This document shows, one piece after another, positions 24,026 to 60,400 of a stretch of DNA of 64,000 nucleotides. Under the pieces are notes generated by a model. The model was not told where the DNA came from, did no database searches, and saw nothing but the letters and a program-made list of their open reading frames with translations. Origin of the DNA: Candidatus Uhrbacteria bacterium (GTDB lineage: Bacteria; Patescibacteriota; Patescibacteriia; UBA9934; GWF2-40-263); assembly GCA_014239775.1 (NCBI GenBank), contig JAAZYG010000022.1, positions 2,218 to 66,217 of the forward strand, written 5' to 3'. Both the position numbers and the translations under genes were made by a program. The stretch's first letter is position 1. Every line of letters begins with the position of its first letter.

Positions 24026-24394
24026 ATGAATTTACCTACATTTTTATTTGATGGAAACTGCGGATTCTGTAAGCATTGGGTGTCACGTTGGAAAAAACAT
24101 ACAGAGGATAGAGTTGAATACAGACCATTTCAAGAAGCGTCAAAAGATTTTCCAAACATAAAAAATGAAGAGTATTTAAAGTCATCTCAATTTATTAATT
24201 TAAACGGAGATGTATTTTCTGGTGCGTATGGTGTTGCGATGTTATTAAGTCATTCAAAGAAACATAGGTGGTTTCTATTTTTATATAAGTACCTACCATT
24301 ATTTGGCTTGATTTCAGAGTTTATCTATAAGCAAATTTCTTCATGTAGGAATTGTGCAGAAAAATTTACAAACATGCTAAAAAAGAAAAAATAA
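24026..24394 (+). CDS. DCC-family thiol-disulfide oxidoreductase (DUF393)
   Basis: N-terminal FDGNCGFCKHW (DxxCxxC) motif typical of the DCC family. Confidence 0.65.
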   Translation: MNLPTFLFDGNCGFCKHWVSRWKKHTEDRVEYRPFQEASKDFPNIKNEEYLKSSQFINLNGDVFSGAYGVAMLLSHSKKHRWFLFLYKYLPLFGLISEFIYKQISSCRNCAEKFTNMLKKKK

Positions 24395-24686: not shown

Positions 24687-25634
24687 ATGGCAAAATCAAA
24701 AACGTCTTCTGCCAACTTGCAGTTGGTTCTAGGGAAGTTTAGTACGAAGATTAAGCTTTTTAGAATACTTGTTCCAGCTAATGCGCCAACACCGATAATT
24801 ACACACTCATGCAGGAGCGAGGTGAGTGTTGTAAATAGATGTAATGACTGCTTCAAAATTGTAAGAATTACAGGGGTACAAAAAAAGGGTGTTGCTCGTG
24901 CTCGTGCTGCTACTGAGCCAAAAGACAAACATTGTCCGCATTGTAAATCGACAACTCCATTTAGTGAAGTGGTTGTGTGTGGAACTTGCGACACAGATGT
25001 GGATTTAAATCAATTGGAGGATAGGCTTCAGTTGGGAAATCAAACAGTACCAATCACAAAAGATCAATTACAGGCATGGCAAACCTTACTTCCACAATCA
25101 AAGGTTATGCGTCCAGTAATGATGTTGCCATCAAGTAGAGTTGGTTCATATTTTCGCGATGAAGCATATGAGGTTGTTCCTGACAAGGGTAGTGCTGCAG
25201 CGTTTGCGTTGTGGTTAAAATATTTAACCAAAAAGCGTCAAGCACTCATTGTTCATTTTTCTATAAAGAAAAATTTCAAAACAGGAGCATTGTATACTGT
25301 TTTGTTTAAGAGTGAACCAAAACTTATATTGCATACATTACATTATGTAGACGAAGTAAATCTTGAGCAGTTTGATGTACCAGACGTACCAAGCGATCTG
25401 TTTGATCAGTTTCATAATCTAGTACAGCCATTACGTCGTAGTTTGCGTGATCCTTTAATTTTACAACATCCACAACGTATTGCATTTAATGAGTTGTTTA
25501 TGAAAGGTGAAAATGCCGGAAAGGTTGAGATTAAAAGGCTTGGTGCACTGCCTGGGGAGTTGGAAGCAGTGGCTAAAAGTATTGGTGAGCGTCTTGCACC
25601 ACCAAAAAAATCACGAAAAAGTACAAAAAAATAA
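24687..25634 (+). CDS. hypothetical protein with three C-x2-C pairs and basic C-terminal tail
   Basis: AGGAGAA RBS. CNDC...CPHC...CGTCD cluster in the N-terminal third. Ends KKSRKSTKK. GC is noticeably higher than in neighbours. Confidence 0.55.
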   Translation: MAKSKTSSANLQLVLGKFSTKIKLFRILVPANAPTPIITHSCRSEVSVVNRCNDCFKIVRITGVQKKGVARARAATEPKDKHCPHCKSTTPFSEVVVCGTCDTDVDLNQLEDRLQLGNQTVPITKDQLQAWQTLLPQSKVMRPVMMLPSSRVGSYFRDEAYEVVPDKGSAAAFALWLKYLTKKRQALIVHFSIKKNFKTGALYTVLFKSEPKLILHTLHYVDEVNLEQFDVPDVPSDLFDQFHNLVQPLRRSLRDPLILQHPQRIAFNELFMKGENAGKVEIKRLGALPGELEAVAKSIGERLAPPKKSRKSTKK

Positions 25635-25779: not shown

Positions 25780-27186
25780 ATGTTGAAATTATTTGAGAAT
25801 ATATTTACGCAAAAGACACGTGGAAGAATATTTGTGCTGTCATTTTTAGCTCTAATTATAGGTCAGAAAGTATTTGCATCTGTAAGTACCACAGAAGGTC
25901 ATGGAGCAAGCATGACACTGATGTGGATTGCGGTGATATTAATTATTGCCAAGATCGCTGGTCTTGTAGAAAAGTTTGGTCAACCAGCAGTTTTGGGGGA
26001 GTTGGTCATGGGTGTCATATTGGGTAATTTATTTATGGTAGGCATTGATGTGTTTGAACCAATAAAACACGATGAGATACTACGATTTTTGTCAGAGCTT
26101 GGTGTAATTATTTTGTTATTTCAAATAGGACTTGAATCTAACATACAAGAGATGCGAAAGGTTGGTGGACGTGCATTACTAGTTGCGATAGTGGGAGTAT
26201 TGGCTCCATTTATATTAGGTGCTTATATGGTAGGTCCGTGGTTAATGCCTGGACTTGATCAGACTGCATATTTGTTTTTAGGTGCAGCACTTACAGCTAC
26301 ATCTGTTGGTATTACCGCGCGTGTTTTTAAAGATTTAGGTAAACTTAATATAAAAGAGGCTCAAATTGTTTTAGGTGCAGCTGTATTTGATGATGTTTTT
26401 GGGTTAATCATACTTGCTATTGTAAGTGCTATTGCAACAGTTGGAGCTGTAAGTTTCGGAATTGTTTCAACAATTGTATTTAAAGCAGTTGTTTTCCTAA
26501 TTGGGTCAATTGCGTTAGGCGCAATATTTGCATCACGTCTTGGAAAGTTTTTATCAAAAGTACACACAGGTGTTGGAATGAAATTTACGTTGGCAATAGC
26601 CTTCTGTTTACTGTTTGCCTATTTAGCAGGTTTGATTGGTTTAGCACCAATCATCGGTGCATTTGCTGCAGGACTTGTATTAGATCCGGTGCATTTTAGA
26701 AACTTTAAGGCTCCCAAGATGGTTCTGGATGTACGTAAAGTTGTAAATAATCATATTCGTGAAGAGCATGATGACGTTGTGTTACGTACAGAAATGAACA
26801 AAGTCATCGATCATCATTCACACAGACATATAGAAGATTTAATAGAACCTATTGCGTATTTCCTAGTTCCTATATTTTTTATTCTAACAGGAATGGAGGT
26901 GTCGCTTGATACGTTTTCAAATCCAAATATATTATGGGTAGCATTAATAATTTCGGTGGTTGCAATAGCTGGAAAATATGTTTCTGGTTATTTTGCAGGT
27001 GATGTAAACAAAAAGATAGTTGGTATAGGAATGATTCCACGTGGAGAGGTTGGGTTAATATTTGCAGCCATAGGAAAAGGACTTGGTGTTCTAAACAATG
27101 ACCTATTTTCAGTAATTATAGTGATGGTTATTTTAACTACTTTGGTGGCACCACCACTTCTAGCAAAGCAACTAAAGAGTATGTAA
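25780..27186 (+). CDS. cation:proton antiporter (CPA1/CPA2, Na+/H+ exchanger family)
   Basis: 12-13 TM helices with a typical CPA fold motif pattern and a hydrophilic His-rich insert. Confidence 0.75.
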   Translation: MLKLFENIFTQKTRGRIFVLSFLALIIGQKVFASVSTTEGHGASMTLMWIAVILIIAKIAGLVEKFGQPAVLGELVMGVILGNLFMVGIDVFEPIKHDEILRFLSELGVIILLFQIGLESNIQEMRKVGGRALLVAIVGVLAPFILGAYMVGPWLMPGLDQTAYLFLGAALTATSVGITARVFKDLGKLNIKEAQIVLGAAVFDDVFGLIILAIVSAIATVGAVSFGIVSTIVFKAVVFLIGSIALGAIFASRLGKFLSKVHTGVGMKFTLAIAFCLLFAYLAGLIGLAPIIGAFAAGLVLDPVHFRNFKAPKMVLDVRKVVNNHIREEHDDVVLRTEMNKVIDHHSHRHIEDLIEPIAYFLVPIFFILTGMEVSLDTFSNPNILWVALIISVVAIAGKYVSGYFAGDVNKKIVGIGMIPRGEVGLIFAAIGKGLGVLNNDLFSVIIVMVILTTLVAPPLLAKQLKSM

Positions 27187-28999: not shown

Positions 29000-29677
29000 A
29001 TGTTTTTAAATATATTATTTACATCACCGGCACTTGCCTTGGCATGGGTGGCTGCAATATTTGCATCACTAACAATACATGAATTTTCACATGCTCTAGT
29101 TGGTAAATTAAGAGGTGATAAAACTGCTGAAAGAGAAGGTCGTCTTACATTAAATCCTGTATCACACATTGATTTAATGGGTCTTATTCCTTTATTTATT
29201 TTTGGATTCGGTTGGGCAAAACCTGTACCGTTTAATCCTTATAATTTAAAAAATCCAAAATGGGACAGTGTTCTTATCGCACTTGCTGGTCCATTTTCAA
29301 ATTTAATACTCGCAATATCAAGTGCCGTTGCATTTAGATTATTAATAGGATCGCTAGGAAGTTATAATTTATTATCAGTATTTTTATTTCTGATGATTCT
29401 TATAAATTTATTTTTGATGTTTTTCAATGTTGTTCCAGTTCATCCATTAGATGGCTCTAAGTTGTTCTTTGCATTATTTGATGCGCCAAAATATGCAAAC
29501 ATGAGAAAGGTTGTTGCCCAGCGTGGTCCGCAGGTGTTGATGATTGCTATTTTTCTATCAATACTTACAAATGCAAATATTTTCTTTTTTGTAAGTGAGC
29601 CAGCATTTTTTGTGTGTGATGCACTGATTGGTCAAAGTTGTGGTGGATTTTTTGGAACTGTATTTTCTAGTTTATAA
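29000..29677 (+). CDS. site-2 protease family (peptidase M50) membrane metalloprotease
   Basis: HEFSHALV (HExxH) in the first TM region and a second Zn-ligand region in a later TM helix. Confidence 0.7.
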   Translation: MFLNILFTSPALALAWVAAIFASLTIHEFSHALVGKLRGDKTAEREGRLTLNPVSHIDLMGLIPLFIFGFGWAKPVPFNPYNLKNPKWDSVLIALAGPFSNLILAISSAVAFRLLIGSLGSYNLLSVFLFLMILINLFLMFFNVVPVHPLDGSKLFFALFDAPKYANMRKVVAQRGPQVLMIAIFLSILTNANIFFFVSEPAFFVCDALIGQSCGGFFGTVFSSL

Positions 29678-29683
29678 AAAAAA

Positions 29684-29701
29684 GACCCGTGTTTACGGGT
29701 C
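29684..29701 (-). terminator. terminator GACCCGTgtttACGGGTC with U-run on the minus-strand reading
   Basis: A8 precedes the hairpin on the + strand, which is a T-run after the hairpin for the minus-strand paralog gene. Confidence 0.5.
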
Positions 29702-29720
29702 AGGAGCAACTGCTTTATAT

Positions 29721-30770
29721 TTAGCTGTTGTCCAAGAGTAGACGTACGCCGCTTTGTTTAGCAGCAGCCTGTAGTAGTCGTGCTGTAGCAGCGTGAACGT
29801 TGTTAAGTCGTTTACCAGAACGAATTGTTTCCATTAGTTCTTTGGCGGCGTGTTCACCTATTCGAGCATCTGATTCACAAACTGTGATAAGTGCATTTTT
29901 TACTGCATGCATCAGCTCGCCATTAGTTCCTTCAGGAAGGAATATACCGCTTTGATTAGCGAGTGTTAACAGTTCTTTATGTACTGTCGGTTCAACTTCA
30001 GTGGGACTCGCATTTACACCACCCATCCATTCAATAGCAGCAGCAAACACATCTTTTGGATTGATTAATTGATTGCCATTATTTGTCGTTGAGACAGAGA
30101 TGGACGTTTTCATATATTGGTGTATTGCACCACTTAGGAAAGGCCGGTTTCCGCATGTTGAACAAACAGCAGAATCAATATTGAAGGCCATAGCTAAAAC
30201 ACTAAAACTTTCATTACAGCGTTGGCAGTTTTTGATCCACCACATATTGTCGAAGTCCCAGTCTGTTATGTTAGGGACAATGCCTTTACTAGCAATTCGA
30301 CTTAGATCGTGCTCATCTATGTTAACCAGCAAGCTCCAAGGGTCGTAGCGCCCATTCTCAATCACATCAATGCCATCACGATCTTCGCAGAGCATCCAGC
30401 TTATGCTAGACATTTTGCATCTAGATACGTGATTGCCAATCATTACAATTGCCATTTCGATATCGTCGCCAACAACCTTGCCTACAAATTGGTCATCACG
30501 TTGGTTTTTTGTATTTGGTACATACCAAAGTGAGTAGATTCGATGGACACCTCGTGTCTGTTTACGAGCTTTTAGGTAGTAACGACGGAAGTGTGGTTGC
30601 TGTGCTGGGCTGTTTATTGTTCGGAATCGAGCAATTACAGATTCTGCTGTATCGTATTTGTTGTGTTTGATTAGGTCGCTCAACACAACATTTCTTCCTT
30701 CTAAAGGATGCACCCATCCTAATGGAATTGTTGGTAATGTTACACCAACTTTTATTAGCGAATGAGTCAA
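29721..30770 (-). CDS. Cys-rich hypothetical protein P1 (349 aa), paralog of P2
   Basis: Shares with P2 the blocks R(R/K)xYL...R(I/L), IE(N/M)GR(Y/F)D...LL and G(I/V)(V/L)...DFD, and a C-x2-C-x18-21-C-x2-C zinc-ribbon (CQRC...CSTC). Begins with TTG per the ORF track. Confidence 0.65.
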   Translation of the reverse strand: MTHSLIKVGVTLPTIPLGWVHPLEGRNVVLSDLIKHNKYDTAESVIARFRTINSPAQQPHFRRYYLKARKQTRGVHRIYSLWYVPNTKNQRDDQFVGKVVGDDIEMAIVMIGNHVSRCKMSSISWMLCEDRDGIDVIENGRYDPWSLLVNIDEHDLSRIASKGIVPNITDWDFDNMWWIKNCQRCNESFSVLAMAFNIDSAVCSTCGNRPFLSGAIHQYMKTSISVSTTNNGNQLINPKDVFAAAIEWMGGVNASPTEVEPTVHKELLTLANQSGIFLPEGTNGELMHAVKNALITVCESDARIGEHAAKELMETIRSGKRLNNVHAATARLLQAAAKQSGVRLLLDNS

Positions 30771-30811
30771 TTTATCATACCTCCTTTGCCTTTGTAGTTA
30801 TTTTTGTCTCA

Positions 30812-32011
30812 TTATTTTAAATCTACAACATCTTTTTTATCATCGAAATGTTCTTCCCAGATTGTTGTTAGGATATCCTCTAAATAGTGAGGAAAATCTC
30901 CAATTACTGATTGAACATCTGATAACTCTAAAATGTTTTCGGGTTTTACCTGTGTGCACAGTAGAAGTCTCTCAATTTCGGATACTCTTTCAGTTGCATC
31001 TTCAAATTGGCTCTGTGCTCGACGCCAGTCGGAGATAAGCCACTTTCTATATTCATTATCTGGCAGATGATTCACACGTGCTTGCGGCAGTTCCCCATAC
31101 TCTAGTCGTTGGATTCGATTCGAGAAGTGTCTACCAACACTCTTAATAAACAGAGCTTTAATATCCGGTATTTTGAGTAATTTGTATAGACTTTTTTCGT
31201 AGAGTAAAGAAATGAGTTGGTGTGAAATATCATTATGATTTACACCCTCGATAGTCATTACTGTTCTGTGTTTGATAAGTTGTGAAAATGCAGGTGTTGC
31301 AACTGTTTCTATAAACCATAGTTCAATAGGAGCATAATCGGCAGGTTTGGCTGGTAGAACTGATCTTGTGTTTTGCAAACGCTGAGCCAGAGTTAATGCT
31401 GCTCCTATATCTACAAAAGCATTTTTACCCCAACCAGAGCATGTACACTTATCACAATTCATCCATTCAGGGACAAGTATTAGCAGATCCTTACCAAAGG
31501 AGATTTGTCGGCATTTAGGACACGTGTGACTTGTAATCAAACAGTCGAAATCAAGCGCACCCATTTTAATAGATACATCAAGAACGCCTGTTGAAACAAG
31601 TTGACGTAATCTGTCTGGGTGTTGAGGTAGTAAGTCTACTATGTCGAACCGACCCATCTCAATGAGTTCTAATAGTTCAAAATCAGCATACAATTCCCAT
31701 CGAACACCTGTTAAAACTTGCCTTTGATTTATGTTTGCAATAGTAGCTTTTACAACATCGATTTCTACTGGATTTTTGAAGACCTGAATTGTTGGGTCAG
31801 TACTTTTGTCTTTTCGAGGAAGCTTTGTAACCTGTCGGAGTCTAACTCGATCTCCAAAACCCTTTTCAAGATAATAGATTTTACGAGAATGACACCATTC
31901 TGCGCGCATAACTTCTCTAAACTTCCAAAAGATATTTGGTAAATCAAAATTAATGTCTTCTGTTGTTAAGGAGCCAGGTTGAACCCGACTCAAGGTCGTG
32001 ATATCTGTCAT
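30812..32011 (-). CDS. Cys-rich hypothetical protein P2 (399 aa), paralog of P1
   Basis: ATG start. LDFD followed by CPKC...CDKCTCSGWGKN. Divergent from rpsL. Confidence 0.65.
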   Translation of the reverse strand: MTDITTLSRVQPGSLTTEDINFDLPNIFWKFREVMRAEWCHSRKIYYLEKGFGDRVRLRQVTKLPRKDKSTDPTIQVFKNPVEIDVVKATIANINQRQVLTGVRWELYADFELLELIEMGRFDIVDLLPQHPDRLRQLVSTGVLDVSIKMGALDFDCLITSHTCPKCRQISFGKDLLILVPEWMNCDKCTCSGWGKNAFVDIGAALTLAQRLQNTRSVLPAKPADYAPIELWFIETVATPAFSQLIKHRTVMTIEGVNHNDISHQLISLLYEKSLYKLLKIPDIKALFIKSVGRHFSNRIQRLEYGELPQARVNHLPDNEYRKWLISDWRRAQSQFEDATERVSEIERLLLCTQVKPENILELSDVQSVIGDFPHYLEDILTTIWEEHFDDKKDVVDLK

Positions 32012-32099
32012 TTTTCACCTCATCGGGTTGTATTCCTATTTTATCAGGAACTGAAAAATATATACAAAAATATTGGTTTTGTCAATACATCAGCAGTGC

Positions 32100-32140
32100 G
32101 TAGATAAATGTTGACCTATTTTTAACAAAATGTTATCCTT
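32100..32140 (+). promoter_or_regulatory. probable rpsL promoter region (TTGACC ... TATCCT)
   Basis: GTTGACCtatttttaacaaaatgtTATCCT lies about 25 nt upstream of the rpsL ATG. Confidence 0.3.
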
Positions 32141-32157
32141 CCGACGCAAATATTATT

Positions 32158-32577
32158 ATGCCTACAGTAAATCAATTGATCAGAAAAGGTAGAAAATCTA
32201 AGTCTACCAAGTCTACGTCACCTGCGATGCAGTTTACGTACGATTCACTACATAGAAAAAAGACTCCTTACAAAAAAGGTAGTCCTTTTAAGCGTGGTGT
32301 TTGTATAAAAGTGACAACAATGACTCCAAAAAAACCTAACTCTGCTATACGAAAAGTTGCACGTGTACGTCTTTCAAATGGAATGGAGGCAAACGCTTAT
32401 ATTCCAGGTGAGGGTCATAACTTGCAGGAGCATTCGATTGTAATGATTAGGGGTGGTCGAGTAAAAGATCTTCCGGGTGTTAGATATCACGTAGTTCGTG
32501 GTGTTTATGACACACAGAGTGTTGAAGGAAGAATGCAAAGTAGGTCTAAGTACGGTGCAAAACGTGCAAAAAAATAA
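32158..32577 (+). CDS. rpsL: 30S ribosomal protein S12
   Basis: [13 protein letters not shown]...PKKPNSA(I/L)RKVARVRL is the canonical S12 sequence. Confidence 0.95.
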
Positions 32578-35339: not shown

Positions 35340-35915
35340 TTAAACAATATATAAATATATTCCAGATTTTTCTTGTACTGGTTTCCAGTTTGGAAAATTA
35401 AATGCATTAGACACTATTCTTGATCCAGGTTTTAGCTCGTTTTTAAGTTTTAATTTAAGTTTATTCATTGCTGGTGATGTTTGGTATAGCAACACAACAT
35501 CTGTATTTTTTAAATCAGCATCCCAAAAAGATTCTTTTAATATTTCTATTTTTTTACTAAATCCAAGTTTGTTAATTTTTCTAATAGATCTTTTTATAAG
35601 ACCAGGATGCAGTTCATACCCTGTAGCAGATTTTGCACCAACCTTTATTGCTTCTATAAGTAGTATGCCATCACCTGAACCCATATCGACAACATGATCT
35701 GTGGGTGATATTTTAGCCATAGAAATCATGGTTATAGCTTTTTCTTGTGTGGATGGAATGTATGGAGCTCCACCGTGAAAAATTGGAATCAACATTCCAC
35801 CAAACCAATAAATGGCCAGTAAATTAGCTGCAATTATAAGGGTTGCCATTAAAACAAAAATAAAAAAAATAGGGTCCATATGAATTATTTTGTACCACAT
35901 CACATCTTGGAACAA
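35340..35915 (-). CDS. class I SAM-dependent methyltransferase with N-terminal TM helix
   Basis: Motif I VVDMGSGDGILLIEA. The start may be the internal Met at about 35879 (MDPIFF), abutting the divergent kinase gene. Confidence 0.65.
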   Translation of the reverse strand: MFQDVMWYKIIHMDPIFFIFVLMATLIIAANLLAIYWFGGMLIPIFHGGAPYIPSTQEKAITMISMAKISPTDHVVDMGSGDGILLIEAIKVGAKSATGYELHPGLIKRSIRKINKLGFSKKIEILKESFWDADLKNTDVVLLYQTSPAMNKLKLKLKNELKPGSRIVSNAFNFPNWKPVQEKSGIYLYIV

Positions 35916-36899
35916 TATGGTATAGGTAAAGTTAATAGTATATCTAAAATTGGAAATGGATTAATTCACGAAACTTTTTCAATAAATTCATCTAGTGGAC
36001 AGTATATCATTCAAAAGTTAAATGCAGTACTTGCAACAAAGGAGATCGCAGAAGATTTTTTAAGTATCACCAAGTATTTAGAATCCAAAAATATTTTGGC
36101 ACCAAAATGTGTACTTACAAAAAATGGTAAAGTTTTAGCTAAATTAGAGGGTAAATCGTGGAGAATGCAAACACAAATTGAAGGAGAGGTGTACTCAGGA
36201 ATAGATGATTATGAAATGTTGTACGAAGCTGGGTTTTTACTCGGAGGTTTTCACAGGGTGTTAAATAACTGTAATATTAATTTTCGATCAAATTTAATCT
36301 TGCATCAAACAAAAACCATATATCAAAGATTACTGGATTCAGAATGTAAATATACATGTGATACTACAGATGTAAAAGAAAGTCTGGTCTTTTTAAAAAA
36401 GGAAATGCCAAAATATTTTTTGCCAAACACACTTCCAGTACGTGTGATACATGGCGATCCAAAAATTTCAAATATTATATTTAACAACAAAAAAGCAGTA
36501 GCTTTAATTGATCTAGATACCTGTAACAAACAAAATATACTGGTTGAATTAGGTGATGCGTTTAGATCTTGGTGCGGAGGTACAGAAGATGATGATATGA
36601 ATTACTTTGATGTTGAAAAATTTAAATATGCATGGCATGGATATTTTGATGGGTCTGTTGGCATGTTAAGTATTCAAGAAAAAAGTTTAATTATTAGGTC
36701 TATTGGAACTATCACCTTAGAACTTGCGAGTAGGTTTTTAACTGATTATTTTGAGGATTCGTATTTTGGTTGGGATAATATTCGATATAAAACAAGAAAA
36801 GATCATAATTTGGCAAGATGTTTAGGGCAATTAGCTCAATTTAAATCTTATAAAACTAATAAAATGCATCTAGAAGAGATGATAATGAGCAAAACTTGA
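35880..36899 (+). CDS. APH/ChoK-fold phosphotransferase (aminoglycoside / homoserine-kinase-II-like kinase)
   Basis: N-terminal LEQYGIGKVNSISKIGNGLIHETF, Brenner motif IHGDPKISNIIF and IDLDT. Confidence 0.7.
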   Translation: MNYFVPHHILEQYGIGKVNSISKIGNGLIHETFSINSSSGQYIIQKLNAVLATKEIAEDFLSITKYLESKNILAPKCVLTKNGKVLAKLEGKSWRMQTQIEGEVYSGIDDYEMLYEAGFLLGGFHRVLNNCNINFRSNLILHQTKTIYQRLLDSECKYTCDTTDVKESLVFLKKEMPKYFLPNTLPVRVIHGDPKISNIIFNNKKAVALIDLDTCNKQNILVELGDAFRSWCGGTEDDDMNYFDVEKFKYAWHGYFDGSVGMLSIQEKSLIIRSIGTITLELASRFLTDYFEDSYFGWDNIRYKTRKDHNLARCLGQLAQFKSYKTNKMHLEEMIMSKT

Positions 36900-36932
36900 C
36901 ACTACTGAGAAGTTAGTTAAAATGCCGATAAT

Positions 36933-37412
36933 ATGAAAGATCAATTTAAAAGAATAATAGATTTGGTTCGCAAAACTGGTGACACAATGGTGGTTACAGA
37001 TACTAATGGAGAGGATGTGTATGTTGTAATGGATCTAGATAATTACGAACTATTAATAGATAGTTTAGATAATTATGAAATAGAGGATTTTGATGAAGAT
37101 GATGATTATGAATCAGAACGTGCGAATGATTTTAATGTTGAAGAGGATTTAGCAGAAAATGTGTCTGAAACAACTCAAAGTGTACCTAAGGAGCAAAGCG
37201 TACCTGCTATATGGGATTCAATGCAATCTGCAACAGACAAAGGTCAAACTTGGGATATCTCAAAGTTAAATGAAAAAGAAATGGCTGATTTAGAAGAAAA
37301 ATTTGAGGAATTTGCTGCAAGAAATGTAAAGGAGGCCATAGAAGAAACAGCCAACATAACAGATGTAAATGATTTTGATGAAGAGGAGTTTTATTTGGAG
37401 CCAATAGAGTAA
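36933..37412 (+). CDS. highly acidic protein with YefM/Phd-like N-terminal domain
   Basis: N-terminal VVTDTNGEDVYVVMDLDNYELLIDSL resembles the YefM [22 protein letters not shown] region. The remaining roughly 110 aa are D/E-rich. Confidence 0.55.
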   Translation: MKDQFKRIIDLVRKTGDTMVVTDTNGEDVYVVMDLDNYELLIDSLDNYEIEDFDEDDDYESERANDFNVEEDLAENVSETTQSVPKEQSVPAIWDSMQSATDKGQTWDISKLNEKEMADLEEKFEEFAARNVKEAIEETANITDVNDFDEEEFYLEPIE

Positions 37413-59427: not shown

Positions 59428-59512
59428 GCCGATGTGGCGGAACTGGTATACGCGCACGACTCAAAATCGTGTGAGGAAACTCATGTGGGTTCGATCCCCA
59501 CCATCGGCACCA
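59428..59512 (+). tRNA. tRNA-Leu (anticodon CAA), type II with long variable arm, encoded CCA
   Basis: Acceptor GCCGATG/CATCGGC, anticodon stem CACGA/TCGTG with loop CTCAAAA, variable hairpin TGAG-GAAA-CTCA, T-arm GTGGG-TTCGATC-CCCAC. Confidence 0.85.
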
Positions 59513-59513
59513 A

Positions 59514-59548
59514 ACTAAAATCCGCAGCTTGCCTGCGGATTTTAGTTT
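59514..59548. terminator. bidirectional terminator CTAAAATCCGCAGcttgcCTGCGGATTTTAG
   Basis: Perfect 13-bp stem with A/T-rich ends, immediately after tRNA-Leu. Confidence 0.6.
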
Positions 59549-59596
59549 GGTGGGGAGGTTATGCAAGAAGAAATGTATTTATTTGGTTTTTAATTT

Positions 59597-59794
59597 TTAT
59601 TTTCGAAATGATTTTAGTCGTGTAATAATTCCAATAATAATACCTAGATATATAAAAATATTTCCAATAGGTATTAATCCAAATGGCTCAATAAGTCTTC
59701 CGTCTACAGCAACTTCTGACCCTATGATTTTAAAGGTTATTATGGAGGAGATCCCCAATAATATCAGTGTAATTGATATCCAGTATTTTTTCAT
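59597..59794 (-). CDS. hypothetical small hydrophobic protein (65 aa)
   Basis: Two predicted TM helices. Bracketed by two strong terminators. No clear SD sequence. Confidence 0.3.
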   Translation of the reverse strand: MKKYWISITLILLGISSIITFKIIGSEVAVDGRLIEPFGLIPIGNIFIYLGIIIGIITRLKSFRK

Positions 59795-59830
59795 AACATA
59801 AGTAGAATAATTCTATCACTCTAAACAGCA

Positions 59831-59867
59831 CAACACAAAAACCGCAGACATGCTGCGGCTTTTGTGT
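59831..59867. terminator. bidirectional terminator CAACACAAAAaCCGCAGacatgCTGCGGcTTTTGTGTTG
   Basis: Long inverted repeat directly 3' of the minus-strand tRNA-Met. Confidence 0.55.
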
Positions 59868-59944
59868 TGGTGGCTGGAGTGGGTCTCGAACCCACGACCT
59901 CGGGCTTATGAGTCCCGCGCTCTAACCGACTGAGCTACCCAGCC
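59868..59944 (-). tRNA. tRNA-Met (CAT), elongator-type (G1:C72); tRNA-Ile2 (lysidine) cannot be excluded
   Basis: Reverse complement is GGCTGGGTAGCTCAGTCGGTTAGAGCGCGGGACTCATAAGCCCGAGGTCGTGGGTTCGAGACCCACTCCAGCCACCA, a good cloverleaf with CCA encoded. Confidence 0.8.
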
Positions 59945-60059
59945 TTTTCTAACAAACGACGAAAGAATAACAAAAATAAGAGAATTTTGCAAGGAGAGCT
60001 TTCTCTAAAAGTTTGATGTTTTTTATTTGATTTAAGCTTTTTTTTTGTGCTATATTGGC

Positions 60060-60088
60060 TTGACAAAATCACAATAATGTGTTAATTT
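60060..60088 (+). promoter_or_regulatory. near-consensus promoter TTGACA, 17 nt, TGtTAATTT driving the ncRNA candidate
   Basis: Perfect -35, 17-nt spacer and extended -10. Confidence 0.4.
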
Positions 60089-60094
60089 AGCGTC

Positions 60095-60252
60095 AATCTT
60101 GAGTCAAATAGAATTCTAGAATTCTACGCAGATGATTGCGTTTGATGACCCAAGGGTTGTATTACCTGAATCATATTGGGAGTACGACATGCGCTAAGCT
60201 GTACTTAGTTAGTCGCGTGCTAAGCCCACTAATTTATTAGTGGGCTTTTTAT
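60095..60252 (+). ncRNA. candidate small RNA (about 155 nt) of unknown family with intrinsic terminator
   Basis: Promoter upstream. 18-bp perfect palindrome TAGAATTCTAGAATTCTA at 60109-60126. Internal hairpins ACGCAgatgatTGCGT and ACCCAAG...TTGGGAG. Terminator AAGCCCACTAAtttaTTAGTGGGCTTTTT. No protein-like ORF. Confidence 0.3.
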
Positions 60253-60323
60253 TTTATTTTTTGTTTTTGTATTTTTCTAATTAAATCGTTTGACATAAAC
60301 AAGAATATTTATTATTCTTTTGC

Positions 60324-60400
60324 CGCGGGGTAGAGCAGTCTGGCAGCTCGTTGGGCTCATAACCCAAAGGTCACCGGTTCAAATCCGGTCCCCGCAACCA
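60324..60400 (+). tRNA. initiator tRNA-fMet (CAT)
   Basis: C1:A72 acceptor mismatch and three G:C pairs closing the anticodon stem (TTGGG-CTCATAA-CCCAA). T-arm ACCGG-TTCAAAT-CCGGT. CCA encoded. Confidence 0.85.

Follow-up and report, generated by a model that had tools for sequence, protein, structure and literature searches.

A two-gene family of predicted zinc-ribbon proteins from Candidate Phyla Radiation bacteria

The question raised by this locus is what is made by two adjacent genes, P2 and P1, which lie beside the str operon in a 64,000-nt stretch of DNA from a Candidatus Uhrbacteria bacterium (contig JAAZYG010000022.1; hereafter the window, to which coordinates refer). A preliminary description of the sequence had presented them as tandem paralogues assignable to no known family, loosely reminiscent of nucleotidyltransferases or primases. 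We conclude with high confidence that P1 and P2 belong to an undescribed family restricted to the Candidate Phyla Radiation (CPR), in which the two co-translated proteins would be subunits of one complex. As a tentative proposal, which we hold to be possible rather than probable, the complex may be a metal-dependent enzyme whose substrate bears phosphate and is probably a nucleic acid, with P2 as the putative catalytic subunit and P1 as the accessory one. CPR bacteria, or Patescibacteria, represent a large share of bacterial diversity; uncharacterised families are common in their genomes, in which a function is assigned to only about half of the genes. The pair studied here is a well-delimited case, defined by strict pairing and gene order, confident structural models, and the lack of a relative in four family libraries or the PDB.

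Paralogy and domain layout

The two open reading frames (ORFs) of 399 and 349 aa, both on the minus strand, proved to be real genes. They are placed as follows.

30812..32011, minus strand: P2 gene, ORF of 399 aa with an ATG start, upstream member of the pair
29721..30770, minus strand: P1 gene, ORF of 349 aa with a TTG start, downstream paralogue

The TTG start gives P1 an N-terminus in agreement with homologues starting M-x-D-L-I-R. When P1 and P2 are compared by BLASTP, they align with E=4e-7 and 23% identity across 240 aa. The relationship is far clearer between profiles: hhalign aligns a profile of 28 P1-like sequences with one of 21 long P2-like sequences over 165 columns, with a probability of 99.9% and E=1.6e-31. 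By this profile comparison, P1 and P2 are shown to be paralogues, and the collinear blocks by which they had originally been recognized as such (RRYYL/RKIYYL, IENGRYD/IEMGRFD, and GIV..WDFD/GVL..LDFD in P1/P2) are borne out. Since the hhalign range, P1 40-207 against P2 20-190, covers just the N-terminal domain and the ribbon, these constitute the common module. As for the C-terminal helical domains, no relationship between P1 and P2 is detectable by subfamily profile comparison. The module and its motifs map as follows.

31442..31954, minus strand: shared module in P2, residues 20-190, from the hhalign range and the secondary structure of the model
30150..30653, minus strand: shared module in P1, residues 40-207, from the same two sources
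31445..31522, minus strand: zinc ribbon of P2, C164-x2-C167-x18-C186-x2-C189, from sequence, its Cys residues invariant in 67/67 aligned members
30153..30227, minus strand: zinc ribbon of P1, C182-x2-C185-x17-C203-x2-C206, from sequence, in the same invariant columns
31544..31555, minus strand: LDFD of P2, residues 153-156 (family motif WDFD), with D154 and D156 in 39/39 P2-like sequences
30249..30260, minus strand: WDFD of P1, residues 171-174, with D172 in 26/28 and D174 in 21/28 P1-like sequences
31643..31654, minus strand: GRFD of P2, residues 120-123, at the end of beta5, with G, R, and D in 39/39 P2-like sequences
30342..30353, minus strand: GRYD of P1, residues 140-143, with G, R, and D each in 27/28 P1-like sequences

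Both proteins thus carry the C4 ribbon that had been described as C-x2-C-x18-21-C-x2-C, with the spacer corrected to x17 in P1 and x18 in P2. P2 consists of an N-terminal alpha/beta domain, the C4 zinc ribbon, and a C-terminal helical domain. P1 has the same N-terminal module and ribbon, the latter with a P1-specific NIDSA.C..CG.RPFLS motif, followed by a different helical C-terminus and preceded by an LPxLP...PLEGxN extension that is specific to P1.

AlphaFold2 models built with the 67-sequence alignment are confident for P2 (mean predicted local distance difference test [pLDDT] score of 88.0, predicted template modeling [pTM] score of 0.87) and for P1 (pLDDT 89.7, pTM 0.85), which indicates that both are folded proteins. 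Both models start with a helix and continue as beta1-beta2-beta3-alpha-beta4-beta5, in which beta4 and beta5 form a tight hairpin, and two short helices; the (W/L)DFD loop, the zinc ribbon, and a bundle of 6-8 helices make up the rest. In the P1 model, short strands flank the CxxC knuckles. The DFD segment is modeled in both P1 and P2 as a coil between helices rather than as a beta-strand.

Distribution, pairing, and genomic setting

Word-seeded searches of 5.8 billion clusters returned 3 and 6 non-self relatives for P1 and P2, respectively, at 27-49% identity (27-46% for the P2 homologues), the named ones coming from Candidatus Falkowbacteria and Kuenenbacteria and from one contig labeled Planctomycetota. 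When 1.84 billion cluster representatives were searched exhaustively with a profile, 84 proteins were recovered at E<=1e-3, 81 of them at E<=1e-10, with no tail into any larger family. A homologue search with the 67-sequence alignment added none to these, giving just four already known members among the 8000 candidates that it covered. In GTDB, the pair occurs in at least 6 of 185,579 species by the patterns used, and a narrower alignment found it at no fewer than six metagenome loci, both counts being lower bounds. The family falls into three groups: P1-like proteins of about 330-365 aa, long P2-like proteins of about 385-440 aa, and short P2-like proteins of about 340-375 aa.

The pairing is strict. 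The 17 distinct loci come from JGI, ENA, NCBI, and Logan assemblies as well as from genomes in GTDB, and in each of them the next gene after a P2-like one, whether of the long or the short type, is P1-like and on the same strand. In 9 of the 10 pairs with called genes, the two overlap by 4-22 nt, an arrangement that shows P2 and P1 to be, by their gene coordinates, translationally coupled in most loci. The window is the exception, with a spacer of 41 nt that contains AGGAGG. No third gene stands consistently beside the pair across the recovered loci.

Some carriers have unexpected taxonomic labels: loci L013 and L015 are labeled "uncultured Gammaproteobacteria" (third-party annotation metagenome-assembled genomes), and the P0003 contig "Planctomycetota." Another carrier of the pair, the JGI metagenome contig L009, matches L013 in synteny gene for gene (55-83% identity). 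These labels are probably binning or annotation errors since all other named carriers are CPR bacteria.

In the window, the pair has expression signals of its own, as listed below.

32057..32085, minus strand: sigma-70-like promoter of the pair, TTGACA-17-TATATT, an 11/12 match in a consensus scan
32016..32021, minus strand: Shine-Dalgarno-like GAGGTG ahead of the P2 ATG, read from the sequence
30780..30785, minus strand: Shine-Dalgarno AGGAGG, 9 nt 5' of the P1 TTG, read from the sequence
29674..29701, minus strand: intrinsic terminator for the pair, hairpin GACCCGT-AAAC-ACGGGTC and then a T8 run, from a terminator scan and the sequence

The promoter, ribosome-binding sites, and terminator support the view that P2 and P1 form a predicted transcription unit of their own. 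The terminator, already recognized as strong in the preliminary description, has a 7-bp stem with 5 GC pairs and was placed by the scan at 29701-29684. The location beside the str operon is likewise as first described, rpsL-rpsG-fusA starting at 32158 and running divergently from the pair; a weaker plus-strand promoter-like site ahead of rpsL (32111-32139) lies back to back with the promoter of the pair. At the other end, an M50-family peptidase gene (29000-29677), which follows murA, is convergent with the pair.

The idea that the pair occupies the place where rpoBC normally sits did not survive comparison with other genomes. No ORF of rpoB or rpoC size is present in the window, and the location is incidental: the neighbors are rpsL, the M50 gene, and murA in the window and its closest relative, L001, but ileS and tRNA-Ala in Falkowbacteria and Kuenenbacteria, glycosyltransferases and a Mur ligase in loci L009 and L013, rpsI in another context, and ParB/NUDIX/topA in locus L016. 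Within each lineage group, synteny around the pair is maintained. The gene order shared by the window with L001, and by Falkowbacteria and Kuenenbacteria with related lineages, indicates that the pair is inherited vertically. A linkage to tRNA or rRNA genes was considered and dismissed, as the density of nearby tRNA genes is about at chance level and the positions reflect synteny.

Could the pair instead be an accessory conflict module, i.e., an anti-phage or anti-host defense system or a selfish two-gene cassette composed of an effector and a sensor or regulator? This explanation, which is compatible with an enzymatic mechanism, has several features of the locus in its favor. The family is sporadic and rare, as the counts above make plain, and its genomic location changes from lineage to lineage. 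The pair is on the strand opposite to nearly all of its neighbors, the minus strand holding 7 of the 63 larger ORFs of the window. Its GC content is modestly high, as had been remarked: P1 has a GC content of 0.421 (z=2.3) and a third-codon-position GC content (GC3) of 0.34 (z=3.2), the highest of the 63 window ORFs, while P2 is less deviant (GC 0.382, z=1.0). It also diverges faster than core genes, with 46-49% identity between the window and L001 as against 60-88% for translation proteins. However, this divergence equals that of ordinary nonessential genes, such as Ku (48%) and a small methyltransferase, which fall at 42-48%. Moreover, the neighbors are housekeeping genes in conserved synteny, no terminal or direct repeats flank the pair, three peptide patterns found no copies of it in IMG/VR, and tblastn searches of the phage collection with P2 and of the plasmid collection with P1 were negative. 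For P1 and P2, PHROGs gave no phage protein family and PADLOC-DB 2.0 no defense component, and for the 67 members PADLOC-DB 2.0 gave just two chance-level Cas12 matches (E 0.05-0.1). We consider a conflict module unlikely, and the absence of repeats and of phage, plasmid, or IMG/VR copies led us to reject a mobile element. The picture that emerges from these genomic comparisons is that of an accessory CPR operon that is rare, is probably inherited vertically, and evolves at a moderately fast pace.

Conserved residues, fold comparisons, and candidate functions

Conservation was counted over the 67 aligned sequences, 39 P2-like and 28 P1-like, and is given in P2 numbering. Each of the four cysteines of the ribbon is present in 67/67, with an inter-knuckle spacer of 16-24 residues across the family. 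They are the only conserved cysteines among the 7 of P1 and 8 of P2 (about 2%), so that calling these proteins Cys-rich was not justified. Conservation of at least 90% in the 67 sequences also extends to R32, I91, W105, G120, R121, D123, L127, W153, D154, and F155. The two subfamilies differ sharply in a set of eight acidic or His positions, which is near-strict in P2-like proteins and relaxed in P1-like ones: E106 (39/39 vs 17/28), D123 (39/39 vs 27/28), D154 (39/39 vs 26/28), D156 (39/39 vs 21/28), E/D49 (38/39 vs 9/28), D72 (38/39 vs 17/28), D126 (38/39 vs 15/28), and H162 (38/39 vs 0/28, with R/K/T/Q in its place). In addition, R32, R43, R66, K69, R104, and R121 are conserved in at least 90% of P2-like proteins. 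Overall, P1-like proteins are not more diverged than P2-like proteins (mean column identity of 38% vs 35%), and they have invariant residues of their own, namely L12, P13, D199, R209, and P210.

Such an asymmetry is the pattern expected if one paralogue keeps an active site while the other specializes as its partner. The strict polar set of P2, relaxed in P1, hence suggests a two-subunit, probably metal-dependent enzyme composed of a catalytic and an accessory paralogue. In the mechanism that we tentatively propose, P2 and P1 would form an obligate hetero-oligomeric complex in which P2 would provide the active site, built from E106, D123, D126, D154, D156, and H162 and flanked by R32, R43, R66, K69, R104, and R121. 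P1, a partly degenerate paralogue, would be a structural or substrate-binding partner, and the two ribbons, presumably loaded with zinc, may help with substrate or subunit binding. The residue asymmetry between P2 and P1 indicates specific mutations by which these roles can be tested.

There are precedents for heteromers that join an active paralogue to a degenerate one, such as the catalytic and structural subunits of the crenarchaeal tRNA-splicing endonuclease, or Trm61/Trm6. P1 and P2 resemble these systems in having adjacent paralogous genes, with a strict polar set in one protein and a relaxed one in the other, and their co-translation suggests a fixed stoichiometry. Unlike in these systems, to which P1 and P2 have no sequence or fold relationship, the complex is a predicted one, and the analogy is one of logic only.

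Several points weigh against an enzyme of this kind. Searches of the family libraries, the PDB, and BFVD found no fold or sequence relative that would support a particular chemistry. The conserved Arg/Asp pairs could be mere structural salt bridges. P1-like and P2-like proteins are both mildly acidic (median pI of about 6), which is atypical for constitutive nucleic-acid binders. Finally, no neighbor gene suggestive of a pathway recurs across independent contexts among the recovered loci.

In a different explanation, the paralogues are a noncatalytic zinc-ribbon adaptor or regulator, a scaffold for a protein or nucleic-acid partner such as a transcription, translation, or repair factor, with the conserved Arg and Asp residues forming structural salt bridges or a binding surface. 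The only charged residues near-invariant in both subfamilies are R32, R121, D123, and D154, which is compatible with salt bridges, and the remaining near-invariant residues that they have in common are Cys, Gly, and hydrophobic or aromatic ones. Zinc ribbons are common interaction modules, Foldseek detected no catalytic fold, and the strand order of the models matches that of oligonucleotide/oligosaccharide-binding (OB)-type domains. What the adaptor explanation accounts for poorly is the set of eight acidic/His positions: residues for fold stability would be needed in both paralogues, whereas preservation in just one is what an active site would more typically show. An adaptor is a serious competitor, but on balance a somewhat unlikely one.

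The likeness to a Pol-beta-type nucleotidyltransferase, or to an archaeo-eukaryotic primase (AEP)- or TOPRIM-type primase using h-D-F-D and a zinc knuckle, was examined as well. Pol-beta-type enzymes have the signature hG[GS]-x9-13-[DE]h[DE]h, its two carboxylates lying on a beta-strand; AEP primases combine DxD (motif I), SGxGxH (motif II), and hD (motif III); and TOPRIM primases have a conserved Glu and DxD on a Rossmann-like beta-alpha-beta core. The pair does have a D-x-D beside a zinc ribbon. The first Asp is present in at least 90% of members; the second is invariant in P2-like proteins only, being retained in just 21/28 P1-like sequences. The other elements fail. The Gly 9-12 residues before DFD is often Asp, and the residue after it is V/I/L, never G/S. 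The SGWG segment that follows the ribbon in the window P2 is absent from 20 other P2-like sequences. The coil conformation of DFD does not fit a nucleotidyltransferase, and the modeled beta-beta-beta-alpha-beta-beta order is not the alternating beta-alpha of TOPRIM. The 67 members have no Pfam or NCBIfam match to NTP_transf, AEP, or TOPRIM families, and Foldseek returned no such structure from the PDB, which is rich in them. We regard such an enzyme as highly improbable.

Further catalytic motifs were rejected on similar grounds. The NADFDGD motif of two-barrel RNA polymerases, a D-x-D-x-D triad on a double-psi beta-barrel, does not apply, as the third Asp is absent (the residue two after D156 is hydrophobic, L/I/M, family-wide), DFD lies outside the beta domain, and the sole RNA polymerase match (7s01_A) has E=1.9 and a root-mean-square deviation of 16 Å. 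The inter-knuckle spacer of 17-18 residues is too short for the beta-beta-alpha-Me finger of HNH nucleases, and the motif positions of PD-(D/E)xK and GIY-YIG nucleases do not fit.

Is the N-terminal domain a known nuclease fold, highly diverged? This would overlap in chemistry with the enzyme that we favor. P1 and P2 share with RNase H-like and staphylococcal nuclease (SNase)/OB-type nucleases a small alpha/beta domain that bears a constellation of acidic, His, and Arg residues, and weak Foldseek matches to the RNase H-like fold recur for both proteins: RNase HI (3h08, 1kvb), retroviral RNase H (3p1g, 3v1o), a DDE transposase (6xg8), EndoV, and Cas12 for P1, and the reverse transcriptase p51 chain and the C-terminal half of UvrC for P2. 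All of these targets share that fold. In addition, beta1-beta2-beta3-alpha-beta4-beta5 with two helices thereafter, as in the models, is the order of elements in OB/SNase-type domains. Nevertheless, the RNase H-like matches all have E>=0.2, probabilities <=0.25, and template modeling (TM) scores <=0.31. RNase H-like nucleases are characterized by a DEDD-type carboxylate set on beta1, alpha1, the end of beta4, and the C-terminal helix, and the OB/SNase fold by a closed five-stranded barrel. The topology after beta4 differs from that of RNase H, in which beta4 and beta5 are parallel and helix-separated rather than a tight hairpin, and the positions of the catalytic motifs appear not to match. 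Foldseek returned no OB structure and not one of the SNase entries, of which the PDB has hundreds. A diverged version of either fold appears quite unlikely.

The domain order of RecO, an OB fold followed by a helical domain and a C4 zinc finger, invites another comparison. Like RecO, P1 and P2 have a five-stranded beta domain with a helix between strands 3 and 4, then helices, a Cys4 site, and a helical bundle, and one family member gave a sub-threshold RecO_C match (E=0.0053). There is, however, no profile match to the RecO chains of the PDB and no Foldseek match to RecO, and P1 and P2 differ in being 100-150 residues longer, paired, and acidic, with a conserved acidic cluster that RecO lacks.

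The ribbons are the only database signals that we obtained. Known C4 zinc ribbons (Zn_ribbon_8/FmdB, RNA polymerase subunit P, and ribosomal eL43/eS27) have two CxxC knuckles on predicted beta-hairpins, as do P1 and P2, in which the knuckles are 17-18 residues apart. Unlike in plain ribbon proteins, the ribbon is here about 25 of 350-400 residues, and the remainder has no counterpart. Searches of Pfam, NCBIfam, PHROGs, and PADLOC with P1 and P2 gave only sub-threshold matches to generic zinc ribbons, the best in Pfam having E=0.028-0.034, below the cutoff (gathering score of 34 bits), and, apart from the two Cas12 matches, Pfam, NCBIfam, and PADLOC gave nothing more with all 67 members. Against the sequences of all PDB chains, phmmer and profiles found nothing beyond ribbon-level matches (E>=0.024). 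A type III polyketide synthase found with the N-terminal-domain profile (whole-sequence E=6.7e-4) is spurious because it is a duplicated fusion construct with per-domain E>=5. In Foldseek searches, nothing significant was found for P2 (best E=1.0 in the PDB and 0.33 in BFVD) or for P1 in the PDB (best E=0.23). Full-text literature searches did not find a description of the family.

The initial view that no known family could be assigned hence stands: the searches assigned the pair to no housekeeping family, and the ribbon and the first Asp of DFD are conserved. Since every test applied places it outside described families and systems, we rate the family as new, and possibly its fold too, as judged by Foldseek in the PDB and, for P2, in BFVD. 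If a more sensitive fold search were to find a known superfamily, the family would become an ordinary, but well-annotated, divergent member of it. If the pair is an enzyme, its catalytic scaffold would be a new one, as might be the step that it performs in the nucleic-acid metabolism or conflict biology of CPR bacteria. A fuller and more doubtful version combines a new fold with a CPR-confined family of hetero-oligomeric, metal-dependent phosphotransfer enzymes or nucleases, P2 being catalytic and P1 degenerate, that would serve a lineage-specific nucleic-acid transaction. Examples of such roles would be a new kind of defense or the processing of CPR rRNAs, which are rich in introns and insertions.

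Neighboring genes and minor observations

In the window, three nonribosomal genes between fusA and tuf (35340-37412) interrupt the str/S10 region.

35340-35915, minus strand: small S-adenosylmethionine (SAM) methyltransferase, PrmA/RrnaAD-like, syntenic in L001
35880-36899: APH-family phosphotransferase, not syntenic in L001
36933-37412: 159-aa protein with a Phd/YefM antitoxin-like N-terminus, syntenic in L001

In two otherwise different synteny groups, a class I methyltransferase of small size (about 180-190 aa) is found less than 8 kb from the pair (window 35340-35915, L001 6138-6686, L007 14822-15370, and L026 13798-14343). This recurrence could be due to chance cross-matching among SAM methyltransferases.

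The window and L001 differ in gene content on the other side of the pair. Three additional genes (L001 12426-15759), encoding a 214-242 aa protein, a 556 aa protein, and an M48 peptidase, lie between the P1 homologue and the M50 gene in L001 and are missing from the corresponding gap in the window (29678-29720). Conversely, a Na+/H+ exchanger (25780-27186) in the window is absent from L001. A Ku homologue (24687-25634), present in L001 at 48% identity, adjoins a DCC1-like thiol-disulfide oxidoreductase (24026-24394) and suggests a capacity for nonhomologous end joining in a small-genome CPR bacterium.

At higher-GC loci, antisense ORFs that cross-match by BLASTP lie inside P1-like genes (L013 8031-8789, L020 9213-9878, and L028 10139-10993, all on the minus strand). 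Rather than being genes, they most likely arise from the conservation of the sense frame; the low-GC window has no similar antisense ORF of at least 60 aa.

In the Falkowbacteria/Kuenenbacteria group, a conserved block encoding an MJ0043_C-domain protein (about 428 aa) and an IspD-like NTP_transferase lies 1-8 kb from the pair (L004 17200-20604, where CofD is also encoded; L020 5047-7102; and L026 15745-18183). Locus L020 (1-4811; same as L012) also contains a 23S rRNA gene that is split by a group I intron, bears three ORFs for LAGLIDADG endonucleases, and precedes 5S rRNA; the P2/P1 pair lies about 3 kb downstream. Finally, a tRNA cluster in the window (59428-60400) contains tRNA-Leu(CAA) and two tRNA-Met(CAT) genes on opposite strands.

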